Shown piece after piece: positions 38,591 through 48,871 of a stretch of DNA of 64,000 nt; within the stretch, counting starts at the first letter, position 1; each line of letters starts with the position of its first letter. The notes under the pieces are model-generated. The model saw nothing but the letters and a program-made list of their open reading frames with translations, was not told the DNA's origin and searched no databases. The position numbers were made by a program, and so were the translations under genes. Source of the stretch: Escherichia phage vB_EcoP_YF01; the sequence record OQ025076.1; one strand, written 5' to 3'.

Positions 38591-38794
38591 TTAGTAGAAC
38601 GAACGAATTTCATCCCACACTTGTTCCTGTTCTTTCCTATAAAAAGAAAGTTGGGTCTTGAACATCTCCACTGATGATTCAAAGTTTTTGGTTTGTGCAG
38701 CTTCAACGAAACGTTCATGTCGGTTGATTTTGCACCGTAGCATTAAATACTTGGCTTCAAGTCTCCGAAGAGCCTGTCTTTTCTCAAGATTCAC
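38591..38794 (-). CDS. Hypothetical protein
   Basis: ORF in track; alternative overlapping ORF 38530-38718 less protein-like. Confidence 0.35.
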   Translation of the reverse strand: MNLEKRQALRRLEAKYLMLRCKINRHERFVEAAQTKNFESSVEMFKTQLSFYRKEQEQVWDEIRSFY

Positions 38795-39203
38795 TTTTCA
38801 GATACTCTGACCAGTCGCCAGATTCAACCAGAACATCTTGTTCTTCGTCGATATGATAAATCCAAGCGATCACAGTTTCACCTGAGTCCATCTTAACAGC
38901 AATCTGAGTACGCTGATAGAAGCTGTCTTCAGGGCTACGTTTGTTGTAACCTTCCAGACGGTCATACGGACCTTCCAGACCTGCTTTGTCAGTAGCAAAC
39001 ACTTCTACACGAACAGGCTTATTGTTATTGCTGTGTGCGAGAGAGATGCTCGGGAAGTAGGAACCACCGTAACGGAACAGATCGAAGTTGTCTTCAGTCC
39101 AACCTTCACCAATCGACTTAGCACCAGCTCGGTCATTAACTAGATAGTTAGCTTGACCACGACGAAGAGAACCATAAGTTGCTACGTAAATTACTTCTGA
39201 CAT
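38784..39203 (-). CDS. Gamma-glutamyl cyclotransferase (GGCT/AIG2-like)
   Basis: N-terminal YGSL motif (VATYGSLRRG) characteristic of the AIG2/GGCT fold; 139 aa. Confidence 0.65.
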   Translation of the reverse strand: MSEVIYVATYGSLRRGQANYLVNDRAGAKSIGEGWTEDNFDLFRYGGSYFPSISLAHSNNNKPVRVEVFATDKAGLEGPYDRLEGYNKRSPEDSFYQRTQIAVKMDSGETVIAWIYHIDEEQDVLVESGDWSEYLKSES

Positions 39204-39204
39204 T

Positions 39205-39414
39205 TTAAATACCTTTCCAGTCTTTCATGATGTTTTCAATGTAAGCACACTGCTGATCAGTGGCCCCTGTTACAAACACTTCTAACCCCAACTGCTCGCA
39301 GAAGGGATTAAGAATCAATATTCTGGTTTGTCCGTATGAATGGTGCTCTCGGTAGATAACACACCCAGCATTCCATACAGAATCAATGGCTTTACTTAAT
39401 CTTTCATGTTTCAT
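39205..39414 (-). CDS. Hypothetical protein
   Basis: ORF in track within the amidoligase cluster. Confidence 0.4.
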   Translation of the reverse strand: MKHERLSKAIDSVWNAGCVIYREHHSYGQTRILILNPFCEQLGLEVFVTGATDQQCAYIENIMKDWKGI

Positions 39415-39467
39415 AAAACCTCCAGTTTATCCGAACTAGCCTCCTATCTCGAAGAGGCTAAAGCAGA

Positions 39468-39674
39468 TTACTCTGTAATAAAGATTTTGATTACACCACA
39501 GATTGATTCTTTACCAAATGTGGCAATAGCTTCCGATTCGCTAGCAGGTCGATCTCCACGCTCATAGAATACTATCTGATCAAGCTCACTTCGGAAATAA
39601 TCAGCGTCAATATCCATAGCTCGCATTTCGCCAGCTGCATTGGTATCTTTAAACAGAACTTTATACTTATTCAC
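39468..39674 (-). CDS. Hypothetical protein
   Basis: ORF in track. Confidence 0.4.
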   Translation of the reverse strand: MNKYKVLFKDTNAAGEMRAMDIDADYFRSELDQIVFYERGDRPASESEAIATFGKESICGVIKIFITE

Positions 39675-45884: not shown

Positions 45885-45893
45885 GATAACCTC

Positions 45894-46700
45894 TTATGCT
45901 ACCTGAAGGAGTTTGATCTGCTGGTCAGCTTCTTTAACGTTGTTCCCGTTAATGATTTCATGAAGCTTCTCAATCGGAAGGCGAGAGTGCAATGCCATCA
46001 GAGTGGACATGTCACACTGCTGAACAACCTTGTCAACCTGATCGTAAACAAACTTACGGTTTTCACGATCGCTAATCCAGAAGTTAGACAGTGAACGGTA
46101 TTCGATACCATAGTCTTTATAGCGGATTGCAGACGCTTTACCGTAGAGTTCTTTACGGCGAGTATCTTTGTCCATAATTACTGCTGGGAGTGACAGGAAG
46201 TAGTCACACAGCACACCAAGCATCATCTGAGTTTGCAGAGTGATATCCAAAGCACCAACGACACCAAGATGTACGTGACCACCGGCAGTACGAAGCCCCT
46301 TGTTCTGAGAAGTCGGGGATGGGTTTTTCTGACCAGTGAAAGCGTTGAAGTCAGGAGTGCATCCAAAGATGAACGCTGATTCATTAAAGGTCTTCATCTC
46401 TTCTTCGGTGAAGATGTGAGAGCTGACACCCGGAGCTGTTTCCATATCCAGTTTGTTCAGGACATTGTTAGTAAGATCAATACCACGTTGCATGTTATCG
46501 TTAAACGCTTCAAAACCGCTCTGTGGGTCAATGTCAAACTCAGCCAGTACGTTGTCCTCTTGAAGACGAACATCCTTAGCCAGAGTGATCTTATCGTCCT
46601 TAGAACAGCCTAATAGACCAGCTACAGAGGTGATGATACCGTTGCTAGTACGAACGAACATTTCAGGGTCAGAGCCGATAAGGAATTTGCGCTTAGTCAT
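45894..46700 (-). CDS. Second glutamine-synthetase-like amidoligase
   Basis: Motifs LIGSDPEMF and GGHVHLGV. Confidence 0.55.
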   Translation of the reverse strand: MTKRKFLIGSDPEMFVRTSNGIITSVAGLLGCSKDDKITLAKDVRLQEDNVLAEFDIDPQSGFEAFNDNMQRGIDLTNNVLNKLDMETAPGVSSHIFTEEEMKTFNESAFIFGCTPDFNAFTGQKNPSPTSQNKGLRTAGGHVHLGVVGALDITLQTQMMLGVLCDYFLSLPAVIMDKDTRRKELYGKASAIRYKDYGIEYRSLSNFWISDRENRKFVYDQVDKVVQQCDMSTLMALHSRLPIEKLHEIINGNNVKEADQQIKLLQVA

Positions 46701-47664
46701 TGTAATACTCCACTAGTTCAGAAAAGAGAGATGAGATTGTGTTACCAACTTCTTCAGTAGTAAGGCCAGAGCTTGGGCCAGTACGTTGAATTAGTCGGGC
46801 GGTAAAGTTTTGTACTGTAATGTTTCCCAACTTGTCGTCTATTGATTCACGTTTGTGACCATAACAGTTGGACCAGAGTCTTAACCACTCTGACATTGTT
46901 TCATACTCGTCCGGGTCTTGATCTTTAGCACGAGCAAATCTTCGTAAGGCATCTTGGTTATGGTTACGAACATAACCGTCCTTGTTGTCACCAACACCGA
47001 AGGGGTTTTGAACCCACACTTGCTTCGTATATTCATCAGAGTCTACAACCAAAGGAAGGAATGCTGCTGCTGACATATTGTTGTTAATAACAACAGATGT
47101 ACTCTCGCTACTCCCATTGGCTCTTCCTCGTTGAGACCATCCACCGAAGAAGTCACGACCTAACCCAGCTAACACTAGAGCGATACCGATGCGTTTACGC
47201 TTCAGCCACTCTTCCCTGTCTTCAATTCCTTCTGCTAGGAAATCCATTCCACGATATTGCCCTTCCAGAATACTGCGGAAGAGCATAAGTCCTGTGAAGA
47301 TCTGATCTGCTGGATGCTCACGAAGGTTGACCGCGACACTATTCGCTGAAGTGATCGTAAATACGTCACGATAGCAAGACATAGAGTTCATAATGTCTGC
47401 TGTTTCAACCAAGTTCTTTTCAATTTCAGATGTAACATGACCATGAAAAGAGTGAGTCCAGTAATTCAACATCTCCAATTGCAAGTTGATATCACGGTTG
47501 AAGCGTCTATAACGCCCCTCTTCCGTGATAACTTCGCCATTAATATCGTTTACGCATTGGCCTTGCATGTAGTTGTGGATACCGAAGCATCCACGACCTA
47601 AGAACTTCTGTTCCCCTAAATCCTGTTGAAGATTCAGAGGTACGATCGTTGTGGAGATTGACAT
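46693..47664 (-). CDS. Hypothetical protein (amidoligase-cluster member)
   Basis: ORF in track; overlaps downstream gene start by 8 nt. Confidence 0.45.
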   Translation of the reverse strand: MSISTTIVPLNLQQDLGEQKFLGRGCFGIHNYMQGQCVNDINGEVITEEGRYRRFNRDINLQLEMLNYWTHSFHGHVTSEIEKNLVETADIMNSMSCYRDVFTITSANSVAVNLREHPADQIFTGLMLFRSILEGQYRGMDFLAEGIEDREEWLKRKRIGIALVLAGLGRDFFGGWSQRGRANGSSESTSVVINNNMSAAAFLPLVVDSDEYTKQVWVQNPFGVGDNKDGYVRNHNQDALRRFARAKDQDPDEYETMSEWLRLWSNCYGHKRESIDDKLGNITVQNFTARLIQRTGPSSGLTTEEVGNTISSLFSELVEYYND

Positions 47665-47674
47665 AACTAACCTT

Positions 47675-48871
47675 TTATTTTCCTAAAAATAATCCGCTCA
47701 TAACACCATCCCACTCAGAGGACGGAATCACTGAATACTCCGAACTTTGGTCCAGAGTCCCACTACTAAATCGCTGAACAATGTTGTAGATGTTGAACAG
47801 GTCTTTAGTCTCAGCACGAATGCCGTAGATTAGCCTGTTAGTTGTTCTCTCATTTTTAGACACGCGACGAGTAAAGTTGATCAGAAGGTTGTCACATTTC
47901 AGGATTTCTGATTCACTCTCTACTAAATCAGGGTGCATCACCGGCAAGAACATTGAGTTATTGACTCGTAATTCTGCTGTTTCATCATTCTCATAATGAA
48001 TCCACTTAAAGTCTTCATCACGGAAGTGACCACACCCATCTCTGTATGACTGTTGACGCCAAGGCACTTGAAATGCTTCAGCATATTTATCAGCCATACC
48101 AACCGTAAACAACGACGCTGGGAAGATACAAGCATCCCAATCGTTACCAACCAGAGTTGCTTTCGTTTCACCCAAGAGGTTAGTGTAAGTGCTAACCATT
48201 CGGGAATAAACGTAAGCCTGAAGGATTGTCCAGCCTTCAACCAACCATTTATGAAGGAAGGTTTCAACTTGACTCTCTTCATCTTCACAATAGAAGGTTC
48301 GATCTAACATCAAATAGAACAGACAACGATCAGCAGGAACATTCTCAGTTGCTACCCCCATAAAACCTTTCTCGTGCCAGCGTAAACAGGAGGGACGATC
48401 TTTGTCCACAAATGCTTCCATAGCTTCCAGTACAGCACGAGGTGTAGTTCGATATTCAGGGTTTTTGTCGTTCCAACGTTCGATATTATTTTTAAGCTCG
48501 CCTTCGTAGTCAATAGCACCCCAACCTAAAGCTGCGGATACAGGCTTTTCGTCACGCCAACGTCTAAAACCTAACATCTTCATGTGAGTTCCGGAGTTCC
48601 AGATATGCTTGATTTTACACATATCCATCTCTCGGCTTAACAGGAACTCTTCCCCATCAGCACTACGAACGTTAGCTTCTTCATGCCACACTCGAACGTG
48701 CATATTCCACCCATGAGTTGCCTCATACATGTTAGGGTCGAAGTAGTCATCATATTCGTCATCGTCTTCATCAACGCCACCGTTATAGTTGCGAAGCTGA
48801 AGGAACCCATAACAAGGAGGGTTGACCGTTAAAACATTACCTTCAGTATCTTCTAATGTTACTGGAAACAT
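47675..48871 (-). CDS. Hypothetical protein (amidoligase-cluster member)
   Basis: ORF in track, 398 aa; no recognised motif. Confidence 0.45.
   Translation of the reverse strand: MFPVTLEDTEGNVLTVNPPCYGFLQLRNYNGGVDEDDDEYDDYFDPNMYEATHGWNMHVRVWHEEANVRSADGEEFLLSREMDMCKIKHIWNSGTHMKMLGFRRWRDEKPVSAALGWGAIDYEGELKNNIERWNDKNPEYRTTPRAVLEAMEAFVDKDRPSCLRWHEKGFMGVATENVPADRCLFYLMLDRTFYCEDEESQVETFLHKWLVEGWTILQAYVYSRMVSTYTNLLGETKATLVGNDWDACIFPASLFTVGMADKYAEAFQVPWRQQSYRDGCGHFRDEDFKWIHYENDETAELRVNNSMFLPVMHPDLVESESEILKCDNLLINFTRRVSKNERTTNRLIYGIRAETKDLFNIYNIVQRFSSGTLDQSSEYSVIPSSEWDGVMSGLFLGK

Follow-up and report, generated by a model that had tools for sequence, protein, structure and literature searches.

At positions 38784-48871 of the window, the whole 64,000-nucleotide stretch of DNA from Escherichia phage vB_EcoP_YF01 (OQ025076.1) that we analysed, the minus strand carries a run of genes that includes five amide-bond enzymes, three larger proteins and several small ORFs; all features described below lie on this strand. 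The source phage is a Kuravirus, with 94-97% nucleotide identity to phiEco32, SU10, NJ01 and Paul, and the cluster is the type example of the already described phiEco32-like amidoligase system. An amidoligase system with this gene set was predicted in 2009 by comparative genomics (Iyer et al. 2009). Later literature names it, as a prediction, the gamma-glutamyl-amide operon or the “peptidoglycan modification” operon, and we found no biochemical characterisation or functional experiment on the gene set in the literature. The first-pass annotation was correct in pointing to a comparative-genomics prediction without biochemistry. The novelty that it implied for the cluster does not hold for the type locus of a system that Pfam names and that has been in the literature since 2009. 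The phiEco32-type set is carried by phiEco32-like E. coli phages and by about 300 other sequenced phages.

The enzymes and their catalytic residues

Profile searches confirmed all five enzyme families proposed from motifs, and the catalytic residues of all five enzymes are invariant across 7-10 lineages. The two glutamine-synthetase (GS)-like carboxylate-amine ligases are Amidoligase_2 (44167..45270; phi32_84 homologue; PF12224 E 7e-8, phrog_7469 E 2e-157) and a COOH-NH2 ligase type 2 (45894..46700; phi32_86 homologue; phrog_3815 E 3e-118). The latter is 100% identical to the phiEco32 protein and matches PF14395 (E 2e-8), which bears the name “Phage phiEco32-like COOH.NH2 ligase-type 2”. In cross-lineage alignments, the invariant residues of Amidoligase_2 are E58, H95, H97, E186 and R188, with E31 and E33 almost invariant, while D11, E13, D49, E54, R137, H142, H144, R182, R193, K195, E200 and R202 of the COOH-NH2 ligase are invariant in 9 lineages. 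Sequence searches found no structurally solved relative for either ligase.

The third ligase is a RimK-like ATP-grasp enzyme (39926..41119; phi32_80 homologue; phrog_2599 E 7e-188) with a C-terminal extension of ~130 aa. Its Mg-binding triad D229, E241 and N243 is invariant in the cross-lineage alignment, as are K85, R121 and K173. It matches the Pfam RimK/Ddl families weakly and under cut-off (E 0.005-0.01), RimK-like alpha-L-glutamate ligases in the PDB at E 1e-3, and NCBIfam RimK/MptN models through its C-terminal catalytic motif at E 5e-8 to 9e-8, far under the curated cut-offs. Since the resemblance to RimK, MptN and Ddl is confined to the catalytic motif and far sub-cut-off, the family match cannot name the substrate. 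The last gene of the run encodes an AIG2-like/GGACT gamma-glutamyl(amine) cyclotransferase (GGCT) (38784..39203; phi32_77 homologue; PF06094 E 3e-17, phrog_2520 E 1e-44), in which the YGxL motif (Y10, G11 and L13) and E84, of catalytic type, do not vary among 8 lineages.

The fifth enzyme is a class-II (Ntn, Cys1) glutamine amidotransferase (GATase) with a C-terminal extension (42057..44087; phi32_83 homologue). It matches GATase_6 (E 1e-14) as well as GATase_7 and GATase_4 in Pfam, and has neither an SIS nor a PRTase domain. Its reading frame opens just two codons ahead of the catalytic Cys (TAG AAA ATT TGT GGC ATC GTA), and AGGTGGA is located 7 nt 5' of the ATT codon; together these place the start at ATT 44087 and give a protein of 676 aa, the form also annotated for phi32_83 in phiEco32. 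The GTG at 44009 proposed by the ORF finder was rejected, as it truncates the protein. With the corrected N-terminus, the alignment to the GlmS N-terminal domain begins at residue 2. Cys immediately follows the start codon in GATase homologues of 8 lineages; those of LUZ24, 7-11, HP1, Vp_R1, LAh_6, CVT22 and VPp1 open directly at (M)CG, and in phi14:2 the annotated homologue begins about 31 residues ahead of its Cys. Across lineages C2, R29, G30, R86, T89, N111, G112 and D129 are invariant, and those residues that hold glutamine by its free alpha-amino and alpha-carboxyl groups are kept. The extension of ~470 aa contains three CxxC...C(x2-4)C zinc-ribbon-like motifs, one of which (C487, C490, C512, C515) is invariant in seven lineages; the Cys-rich zinc-ribbon part claimed earlier is thus confirmed at the sequence level.

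The Shine-Dalgarno of the ATT start falls inside a 9-codon mini-ORF read directly from the sequence (44091..44120; ATG AAA GGG ... GAT TAG), a stretch that is identical in Paul and phiEco32. There is an 8-bp hairpin 3' of the Amidoligase_2 stop, and the intergenic region between Amidoligase_2 and GATase as a whole shows no more structure than shuffled sequence (z -1.2).

Conserved partners and intruders

Three larger proteins accompany the enzymes. The 205-aa protein (p205; 45267..45884; phi32_85 homologue) was found by iterative HMM searches in 8 lineages, each time between the two ligase genes. Its gene overlaps that of Amidoligase_2 by 4 nt here and by 4 to about 50 nt across lineages, indicating translational coupling. 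The sole family-wide invariant residues are R106 and G111, with K110 nearly so; they lie in a loop between SH3-like barrels that is disordered in the AlphaFold2 model. HMM searches found no separate p205 in phi14:2. The module begins with a 398-aa protein (p398; 47675..48871; phi32_88 homologue), whose confident structural model has no counterpart among solved structures. It is followed by a 323-aa protein (p323; 46693..47664; phi32_87 homologue), whose gene overlaps that of the COOH-NH2 ligase by 8 nt. In profile searches p323 matched no family except phrog_13102, and an exhaustive search returned only 23 representatives in 1.84 billion proteins; its best HMM matches, both weak, are to the ORFs in syntenic position in LAh_6 (E 2e-4) and in 7-11 (E 0.03). 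The p398 HMM matches both ORFs of the upstream pair in other phage lineages, and p323 and p398 have in common a PAD(R/K)xxFxxLMxxR motif; p323 is probably a distant paralogue of p398. By sequence comparison, p205 and the p398/p323 pair are retained with the module in distant phage lineages.

The first-pass annotation had described a tightly coupled run, and the junctions bear this out: they are overlaps or gaps of at most 11 nt, except for 79 nt before the GATase gene and 53 nt between two small ORFs. Its count of partners was too high, as two of the ORFs counted are not partners. A 168-aa HNH homing endonuclease (41547..42053; HNH_3 E 3e-14, phrog_99 E 7e-59) between the GATase gene and the next gene is an intruder; it is missing here from Paul and phiEco32 and also from most relatives, which accounts for the roughly 5% of the region that these leave uncovered. 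The small 82-aa ORF at 39671..39919, identified from the Paul annotation and by its match to phi32_79 (E 1e-61), encodes a homologue of phiEco32 gp79, which is an RNA polymerase inhibitor that inhibits sigma-70 transcription (PMC8948821); it sits in the run yet is functionally separate. Two further small ORFs encode a 77-aa DUF7195 protein (41327..41560; phi32_82 homologue; PF23825 E 5e-17), with homologues just 3' of the GATase gene also in 7-11, Vp_R1 and LAh_6, and a 74-aa protein (41122..41346; phi32_81 homologue; phrog_13464) with matches solely in Paul and phiEco32, thus Kuravirus-only among the compared loci.

Distribution and expression of the module

Among 50,697 phage records, Amidoligase_2 occurs in 306, the COOH-NH2 ligase in 306, the ATP-grasp ligase in 313 and the GATase in 334, with the same host make-up for all four. 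Gene order is common to Kuravirus, LUZ24, 7-11 and LAh_6, and is rearranged yet contiguous in HP1, CVT22, VPp1, CW02, Asterion and the crAss-like phi14:2. In several unrelated lineages the module is placed beside the primase/helicase gene. A minimal pair of Amidoligase_2 and GGCT is found in Geobacillus phage GR1 and has been described in Clostridium prophages. CVT22, Asterion and VPp1, in which GGCT was undetected, carry a Peptidase_C26 gamma-glutamyl hydrolase, and CW02 has both. This replacement strengthens the gamma-glutamyl reading, although Peptidase_C26 could act as a glutaminase instead.

Regarding expression, the SU10 homologues of the ATP-grasp ligase, GATase and GGCT were detected by mass spectrometry, together with a 23-kDa protein equal in size to p205. 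The homologous cassette of HP1 was described as ‘expressed immediately’.

Proposed function and alternatives

The best explanation, to which we give about an even chance, is an early-expressed cytoplasmic multi-enzyme module that makes gamma-glutamyl-type amide bonds on an acceptor and later takes them off again. From family membership we infer the following steps. Each GS-like ligase would convert a carboxylate to an acyl-phosphate and join it to an amine, probably as a complex with the partner whose gene lies immediately upstream (p205 with Amidoligase_2, p323 with the COOH-NH2 ligase), and at least one of the resulting bonds would be a gamma-glutamyl amide. The ATP-grasp ligase would couple an amino acid to a free carboxylate, with L-glutamate as the likeliest candidate. 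The GATase may transfer the glutamine amide nitrogen to an activated carboxylate or hydrolyse a gamma-glutamyl-X intermediate. Finally, the cyclotransferase would release the gamma-glutamyl group as 5-oxoproline and set the amine free; in versions lacking it, Peptidase_C26 would free the amine by hydrolysis. GGACT, class-II GATase and Peptidase_C26 share a type of target: gamma-glutamyl or glutamine moieties whose alpha-amino group is free. The earlier proposal, in which gamma-glutamyl or other amide bonds are made, trimmed and recycled, finds support in the families, the kept catalytic residues and the Peptidase_C26 of GGCT-less versions. Among the roles suggested earlier (tagging of virion or host proteins, synthesis of a metabolite, remodelling of polyamines or peptidoglycan), the sequence singles out none. 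We prefer to see gamma-glutamyl as a transient handle that may be used, while the host is taken over, in making a small peptide or metabolite with amide linkage. Gamma-glutamyl is used as a carrier or protecting group by BtrJ/BtrG in butirosin, EgtA/EgtC in ergothioneine and FzmN/FzmA in fosfazinomycin biosynthesis, and by PuuA/PuuD in putrescine catabolism. Two observations count against the metabolite: the invariant Lys/Arg loop of p205 is no less compatible with a protein as acceptor than with a small molecule as product, and a metabolite pathway does not account for the lasting location beside replication genes.

That loop is the starting point of an unlikely alternative, in which the Lys of this flexible loop of p205 is a covalent acceptor or carrier: a GS-like ligase would link a glutamyl or peptide group to it, as PafA does with Pup, the ATP-grasp ligase would extend it, and GATase and cyclotransferase would edit or erase it; or a host protein would be modified, as S6 is by RimK. 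Epsilon-(gamma-glutamyl)-lysine is a substrate of GGACT-type enzymes, and the case of PafA/Dop shows that protein lysines can be tagged by GS-like ligases. The constant place of p205 between the ligase genes in 8 lineages, its coupling to Amidoligase_2 and the invariance of the loop also fit such a role. However, neither ligase matches Pfam Pup_ligase at E 0.01 or better, the GGACT enzymes known to us take the free isodipeptide rather than proteins, phi14:2 lacks a separate p205 and GR1 holds amidoligase and GGCT alone. In addition, complex formation may simply order the disordered loop, which would then complete an active site. We hold it distinctly improbable that cytoplasmic peptidoglycan precursors or stem peptides (gamma-D-Glu, D-Ala-D-Ala, amidated residues) are altered so that the wall resists superinfecting phages. 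This role is predicted in several papers, which cite Iyer et al. 2009 and Hardies et al. 2013; the surroundings of the ATP-grasp active site resemble Ddl and RimK, and immediate-early expression in HP1 is compatible with superinfection exclusion. Nevertheless, the reading derives purely from enzyme classes, profile searches matched no cluster protein to Mur-ligase, Fem or MurT/GatD families, and the modification would have to leave the phage's own lysis enzymes effective.

Two further readings appear very improbable, the second slightly more so. A base or nucleotide might receive an amino-acid-derived group, which would explain the resistance of Gordonclarkvirinae to restriction-modification. 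In Kuravirus, LUZ24, 7-11, LAh_6, CVT22, VPp1, CW02 and phi14:2 the cluster has primase/helicase genes and genes of replication or nucleotide metabolism as neighbours, and viral metagenomes are reported to show amidoligase and amidotransferase genes alongside thymidine-hypermodification genes. Yet 11 of 16 restriction enzymes cut the genomic DNA of a LUZ24-like phage bearing the module, and phiEco32 termini were mapped via restriction profiling, according to the literature. ThyX and dCTP deaminase are encoded in the window, whereas a ThyA-like hydroxymethylase is missing and neither 5-HMUDK nor aGPT-Pplase is among the annotated genes; the primase linkage may stem from shared ancestry of the early/middle region rather than from function. 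The other reading is that glutamine, glutamate or 5-oxoproline pools are raised or redirected toward nucleotide synthesis. Acting one after the other, amidoligase and GGCT would in effect turn glutamate into 5-oxoproline at the expense of ATP, and such genes reportedly aid nitrogen metabolism in a Planctomycetes phage. Several papers on environmental phages class them as auxiliary metabolic genes. Against this, no enzyme is orthologous to GlnA, GltB, AsnB, GlmS, PurF or GshA/B, matches being absent or far under curated cut-offs, and a set of eight co-conserved proteins, with fold or function unknown for three, exceeds what pool adjustment would need.

Overall, our analysis adds to the described system p205 and the p398/p323 proteins as module parts, the catalytic integrity of the enzymes, the ATT start, Peptidase_C26 in GGACT-less versions and the two non-partner ORFs. 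The presence of the cluster in this phage is unsurprising; its product in the infected cell is a testable question.

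Identity of the locus and its earlier description

Over 94-95% of its length, the minus-strand run at 38784-48871 shares 94-97% identity with upwards of 60 phages of Escherichia and Shigella. These relatives, among them SU10, NJ01, Paul and YW01, belong to the genus Kuravirus of the subfamily Gordonclarkvirinae. The remaining ~5% of the region, without coverage in these relatives, corresponds to an HNH_3 homing endonuclease gene (41547-42053). The locus has all the defining features of the phiEco32-type amidoligase system. Gene content and order are identical to those of phi32_77 to phi32_88 of phiEco32, with 97-100% protein identity (100% for the COOH-NH2 ligase, 99% for the 205-residue protein p205). 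Apart from the HNH gene, which is additional in the window and lies between the genes of the class-II glutamine amidotransferase (GATase) and of a DUF7195 protein, the two loci differ only by point changes. In Pfam, PF14395 carries the name of the phiEco32 COOH-NH2 ligase itself.

The cluster is therefore a rediscovery, already known from comparative genomics since 2009. The phiEco32 amidoligase system was predicted by Iyer et al. 2009 (Iyer, Abhiman, Burroughs and Aravind, Mol Biosyst). Several papers citing that work describe the amidoligase/GATase set as predicted for cell-wall modification or secondary metabolite synthesis. Hardies et al. 2013, as quoted in PMC4819975 and PMC5498523, described a “gamma-glutamyl amide / unusual peptide bond” operon in phiRIO-1, HP1 and LUZ24-like podoviruses. 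Duhaime et al. named a seven-gene “peptidoglycan modification cassette” and listed phiEco32, 7-11, PA11, tf, MR299-2, LUZ24, PaP3 and CW02 as carriers, and a 2025 paper still uses “putative peptidoglycan modification module”. Expression data exist for two relatives. In a concentrated preparation of phage SU10, mass spectrometry picked up the ATP-grasp enzyme, the GATase and the gamma-glutamyl cyclotransferase (GGCT), together with two more proteins whose sizes fit the 205-aa and 120-aa ORFs, and HP1 transcriptomics found the cassette to be “expressed immediately”. Our full-text literature searches found no biochemical or genetic characterisation of the cluster, in agreement with the first-pass annotation, which had pointed to comparative-genomics predictions and no known biochemistry.

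Enzyme families, catalytic residues and gene starts

Profile searches bore out all five enzymes named from sequence motifs. The GGCT (38784-39203, minus strand) matches the GGACT/AIG2 family (PF06094, E 3e-17) and the GATase (42057-44087) matches GATase_6 (E 1e-14). The two glutamine synthetase (GS)-like ligases are an Amidoligase_2 protein (44167-45270; PF12224, E 7e-8, 33 bits against a cut-off of 22; phrog_7469, E 2e-157) and a type 2 COOH-NH2 ligase (45894-46700; PF14395, E 2e-8, 34 bits against 25; 100% identical to phi32_86). Pfam matches of the ATP-grasp protein (39926-41119) are weak (E 0.005-0.01), but phrog_2599 identifies it unambiguously (E 7e-188). The genes overlap or are separated by at most 11 nt, with the exception of two larger gaps.

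Residue conservation was read from alignments over 7-10 lineages. In the GATase, the catalytic Cys1 (C2), R29, R86/T89, N111/G112 and D129 are invariant, and one CxxC...CxxC zinc ribbon is also kept. N111/G112 form the oxyanion hole, and D129 and R86/T89 correspond to the GlmS/PurF residues that grip glutamine by its free alpha-amino and alpha-carboxyl groups. The ATP-grasp protein has an invariant D229, E241 and N243 triad, the GGCT an invariant YGxL motif and E84, and both GS-like ligases keep clusters of Glu, His and Arg. Overall, families and catalytic residues support the amide-bond logic first proposed for the cluster, which we judge sound.

PHROG and RefSeq label the ATP-grasp protein as RimK (30S ribosomal protein S6--L-glutamate ligase) and the GATase as GlmS. 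The catalytic motif of the former is indeed matched by RimK/MptN-type models, with Pfam and NCBIfam scores below cut-offs. However, the RimK equivalog models reach only 25 bits against 331 (NF007764) and 32 against 143 (TIGR00768), over residues 214-253 only. More generally, the protein resembles RimK (the poly-glutamate ligase of S6) and LysX/ArgX with the LysW carrier protein in the RimK-clade catalytic C-terminal motif. Only ~40-80 residues align, scores of 25-32 bits stand against cut-offs of 143-350, and no S6-like or LysW-like partner was identified for the phage module. GlmS, for its part, combines a GATase-II domain with two SIS isomerase domains; the phage GATase scores 43 bits against a cut-off of 381, over its N-terminal domain only (residues 2-194), and Pfam detects no SIS domain. 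Two common database labels are hence misnomers, namely “ribosomal protein S6 glutaminyl transferase” and “L-glutamine-D-fructose-6-phosphate aminotransferase”. Ordinary purine or glutathione biosynthesis is likewise not what the cluster encodes, since the GATase reaches 26 bits against 350 for PurF (TIGR01134) and has no PRTase domain, and no GshA or GshB model occurs among NCBIfam/Pfam matches at E <=0.01. PDB sequence searches with both GS-like ligases returned nothing at E <=10, and the anti-phage defence and counter-defence models of PADLOC-DB gave 0 matches for nine proteins.

The GATase frame opens just two codons ahead of the catalytic Cys codon (TAG AAA ATT TGT), and AGGTGGA lies 7 nt upstream. 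We therefore place the start at the ATT at 44087, a rare start codon immediately preceding the Cys codon, which gives a protein of 676 aa. The phiEco32 annotation agrees with this start, and in the GenBank record of phage Paul the protein is cut to 562 aa. Once the N-terminus is corrected, alignment to GlmS begins at residue 2. A 9-codon mini-ORF ends 3 nt upstream of the ATT, and this stretch (44085-44120, minus strand) is identical in Paul and phiEco32. Homologues in seven other lineages start directly at (M)CG; in Vibrio phage VPp1 (comparison locus L011, ~7763), an ATT independently precedes the Cys codon as well. The annotated GATase of the crAss-like Cellulophaga phage phi14:2 (comparison locus L004, 10826-12742) carries ~31 hydrophobic residues ahead of its catalytic Cys (…NNVIS-CGLFGW); either its start is mis-annotated or it has a pro-peptide needing removal.

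Partner proteins and conservation of the module

Three of the other proteins in the run, p205, p323 and p398 (named by length), are conserved partners, as the first reading had supposed, but this does not hold for two further ORFs within it. One, the HNH endonuclease, has no counterpart at this site in phiEco32 and Paul. Because HNH genes of UFV-P2 and VPp1 also adjoin GATase genes, the junction between the GATase gene and that of the 77-aa DUF7195 protein (41327-41560) may be a recurrent insertion site. The other, of 82 aa, is a homologue of phiEco32 gp79, a sigma-70 transcription inhibitor.

Local iterative HMM searches recovered the p205 family in eight lineages, always between the two ligase genes; in all lineages that were looked at, the p205 gene runs into the start of Amidoligase_2. 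No p205-like domain was detected within the N-terminal extension of the phi14:2 amidoligase. The most conserved segment of p205, residues 83-128, is disordered in the structural model. Across all lineages, R106 and G111 are the sole invariant residues and K110 is nearly so (P-x-R-x3-K-x-G-L).

Compared with viral models using Foldseek, p398 matched uncharacterised proteins of Proteus phage 3H10_20, Cronobacter phage GAP52 (two) and Aeromonas phages LAh_8 (two) and LAh_6. The LAh_6 match has the length of the first ORF upstream of the LAh_6 COOH-NH2 ligase gene, and the sizes of the two LAh_8 matches fit the LAh_6 ORF pair at the equivalent position. An exhaustive profile search among 1.84 billion proteins gave only 23 representatives of p323, whose best weak HMM matches are syntenic ORFs. 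Profile-profile comparison of p398 with p323 (hhalign) was not significant (E 0.16, probability 0.4%). Nevertheless, a PAD(R/K)xxFxxLMxxR motif common to both, the weak syntenic HMM matches and the Foldseek matches that the p398 model gives to each of the two upstream ORFs in other phages argue that the two are related. Our conclusion is that the module includes, as integral parts that evolve fast, p205 and two p398-type paralogues.

In tblastn searches against 50,697 phage records, Amidoligase_2 and the COOH-NH2 ligase each matched 306 records, the ATP-grasp protein 313, the GATase 334 and the short, divergent GGCT 185. The four larger sets have a near-identical host make-up (Pseudomonas ~120, Escherichia ~92, Vibrio up to 22, then Aeromonas, Proteus, Salmonella, Cronobacter and Pseudoalteromonas). 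The cluster is conserved in ~0.6% of sequenced phage genomes, whose hosts range from E. coli and Pseudomonas to marine Bacteroidota. Comparison with the loci of LUZ24, 7-11, phi14:2, HP1, Vp_R1, GR1, LAh_6, CVT22, VPp1, Asterion and CW02 showed that the module recurs in distant lineages. In Kuravirus, LUZ24 and 7-11, the order is two unknowns, COOH-NH2 ligase, a ~200-aa protein, Amidoligase_2, GATase, a small ORF, ATP-grasp and, after further genes, GGCT and primase/helicase, a conserved co-linear arrangement that lies in the early/middle region. Vp_R1 and LAh_6 keep this core order with GGCT elsewhere in the run, while in Zobellviridae, VPp1 and a crAss-like Cellulophaga phage the module is contiguous and rearranged. 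Geobacillus phage GR1 has a minimal pair, Amidoligase_2 plus GGCT, also reported in Clostridium prophages.

The phiRIO-1/HP1/LUZ24-like operon resembles the window in its five enzyme families, its p205-type protein, its place upstream of primase/helicase and its early expression. In contrast, protein identity is only 25-40%, the order is rearranged in Zobellviridae, the GATase and ATP-grasp proteins are shorter, some versions have Peptidase_C26 and lack GGCT, and the 398/323-type pair is seen only via structure or weak HMM matches. Near the modules of 7-11 (comparison locus L003, 121-2684) and LAh_6 (L009, 15130-18268) lie genes for a ribose-phosphate pyrophosphokinase and a nicotinamide phosphoribosyltransferase, a pair that resembles a phage NAD+ reconstitution pathway and has no equivalent in the window.

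Several other features of these genomes were noted. In CVT22, Asterion and CW02, 10-17 small ORFs per phage, in and around the cluster and early region, end in a LENE/LENK/LEENV peptide. Its reading as a C-terminal-Glu substrate tag was rejected: the motif results from translation of a repeated TTGGAGAATGAATAA(ATG) cassette that provides the gene behind it with its Shine-Dalgarno sequence and start, so that the peptide is a by-product of translational coupling. Three consecutive ~81-aa ORFs (50780-51527) were also rejected as paralogues, as phmmer finds no mutual similarity. The early region of the window holds a single tRNA-Arg (anticodon TCT, 53251-53326), annotated in phage Paul too. In the middle-gene region, near a phage sigma factor homologue, are a SLOG-family protein (YAcAr/YspA-like, E 2e-6; 19596-19988) and a Macro-domain protein (E 1e-10; 20652-21092), which could act on ADP-ribose or nucleotide signals.

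Proposed gamma-glutamyl chemistry and competing readings

The module versions of CVT22 (L010, 6706-7350), Asterion (L012, 6767-7417) and VPp1 (L011, 6138-6830) encode a Peptidase_C26 protein (214-230 aa, E 1e-14 to 1e-18), a class-I GATase-like gamma-glutamyl hydrolase, and GGCT was not detected in them; CW02 has both (Peptidase_C26 at 235-882 of L013). This suggests a non-orthologous replacement of the gamma-glutamyl-cleaving step. The substrates of GGACT, class-II GATases and C26 enzymes have in common a gamma-glutamyl or glutamine moiety whose alpha-amino group is free, and the substitution therefore gives independent support for a gamma-glutamyl-removing step.

The same enzyme pairings occur in the characterised pathways of butirosin (BtrJ/BtrG), ergothioneine (EgtA/EgtC) and putrescine catabolism (PuuA/PuuD). 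There, an ATP-grasp or GS-like ligase installs a gamma-glutamyl amide, and the gamma-glutamyl group is removed by a GGCT, a class-II GATase-like hydrolase or a C26 hydrolase. The likeness lies in the pairing of enzyme classes, with a weak match of the EgtC model to the phage GATase (E 2.5e-4). Unlike those pathways, with which there is no orthology and to whose models scores are far under cut-offs, the phage module unites all these classes with three uncharacterised proteins. In our preferred model, each GS-like ligase, with its upstream partner, would form amide bonds via acyl-phosphates, at least one of them a gamma-glutamyl amide. The ATP-grasp enzyme would add an amino acid, probably glutamate; the GATase would donate amide nitrogen or hydrolyse a gamma-glutamyl intermediate; and the gamma-glutamyl handle would be taken off by the GGCT or C26 enzyme. 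All of this would happen in the cytoplasm and early, leading to a small amide-linked product. We give this chemistry about an even chance of being right.

The invariant flexible loop of p205 speaks for a rival reading, in our view unlikely, in which p205 is the centre of a system for protein-lysine modification or of a carrier system. PafA and Dop belong to the same GS-like carboxylate-amine ligase fold class as the phage ligases and show that this fold can act on protein lysines. However, neither phage ligase matches Pup_ligase in Pfam at E <=0.01, Pup and proteasome genes are absent, and no conserved small protein with a Pup-like C-terminus (GGQ/E) was found. In a more specific and still less probable form, p205 would be the hub of a covalent modification system and not of a metabolite pathway: its loop lysine would be acylated by a GS-like ligase, extended by the ATP-grasp enzyme and edited by the GATase and cyclotransferase, in a manner resembling Pup or carrier proteins, with p398 and p323 as accessories of new fold. 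As the module stays beside replication genes, replication or DNA might be the target of the modified protein or of the cargo, and the system could underlie the resistance of Gordonclarkvirinae to restriction-modification. Peptidoglycan modification, the hypothesis of the literature, is predicted from sequence and seems to us improbable to a similar degree.

The constant linkage to replication genes and the unexplained restriction-modification resistance of Gordonclarkvirinae could point to DNA or nucleotide modification, but LUZ24-like and phiEco32 DNA is digestible by restriction enzymes and hypermodification genes are absent. Thymidine hypermodification clusters (Lee et al. 2018; 2021) encode a dUMP hydroxymethylase or TET/JBP, a 5-HMUDK kinase and an aGPT-Pplase. 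None of these is annotated in phiEco32, and the thymidylate synthase in the window is ThyX (E 5e-43), with no ThyA-like enzyme. A 299-aa “dNMP kinase” has no Pfam match and may thus be a divergent kinase. DNA hypermodification was therefore rejected as the main reading and kept as a rival of low probability; plain adjustment of the nitrogen pool comes last, as the least probable. At 34365-36278, close downstream of the genes for primase/helicase and exonuclease, the window encodes a nucleotidyltransferase of 456 aa (PolyA_pol head domain, E 2.5e-4; phrog_12715) together with a dCTP deaminase, a pair that the BASEL study considers a possible cause of the restriction-modification resistance.

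Whatever its product, the cluster likely matters to the phage, since it takes up ~10 kb of a 77-kb genome (13%) and even the Kuravirus clade with genomes reduced to 67-69 kb has kept it. The BASEL isolates Bas86-Bas94 now open it to genetics in E. coli K-12. Solving it would give a function to two Pfam families without a characterised member and to three families without known folds, and a metabolite or protein modification of a new kind, made by phages, might come to light.
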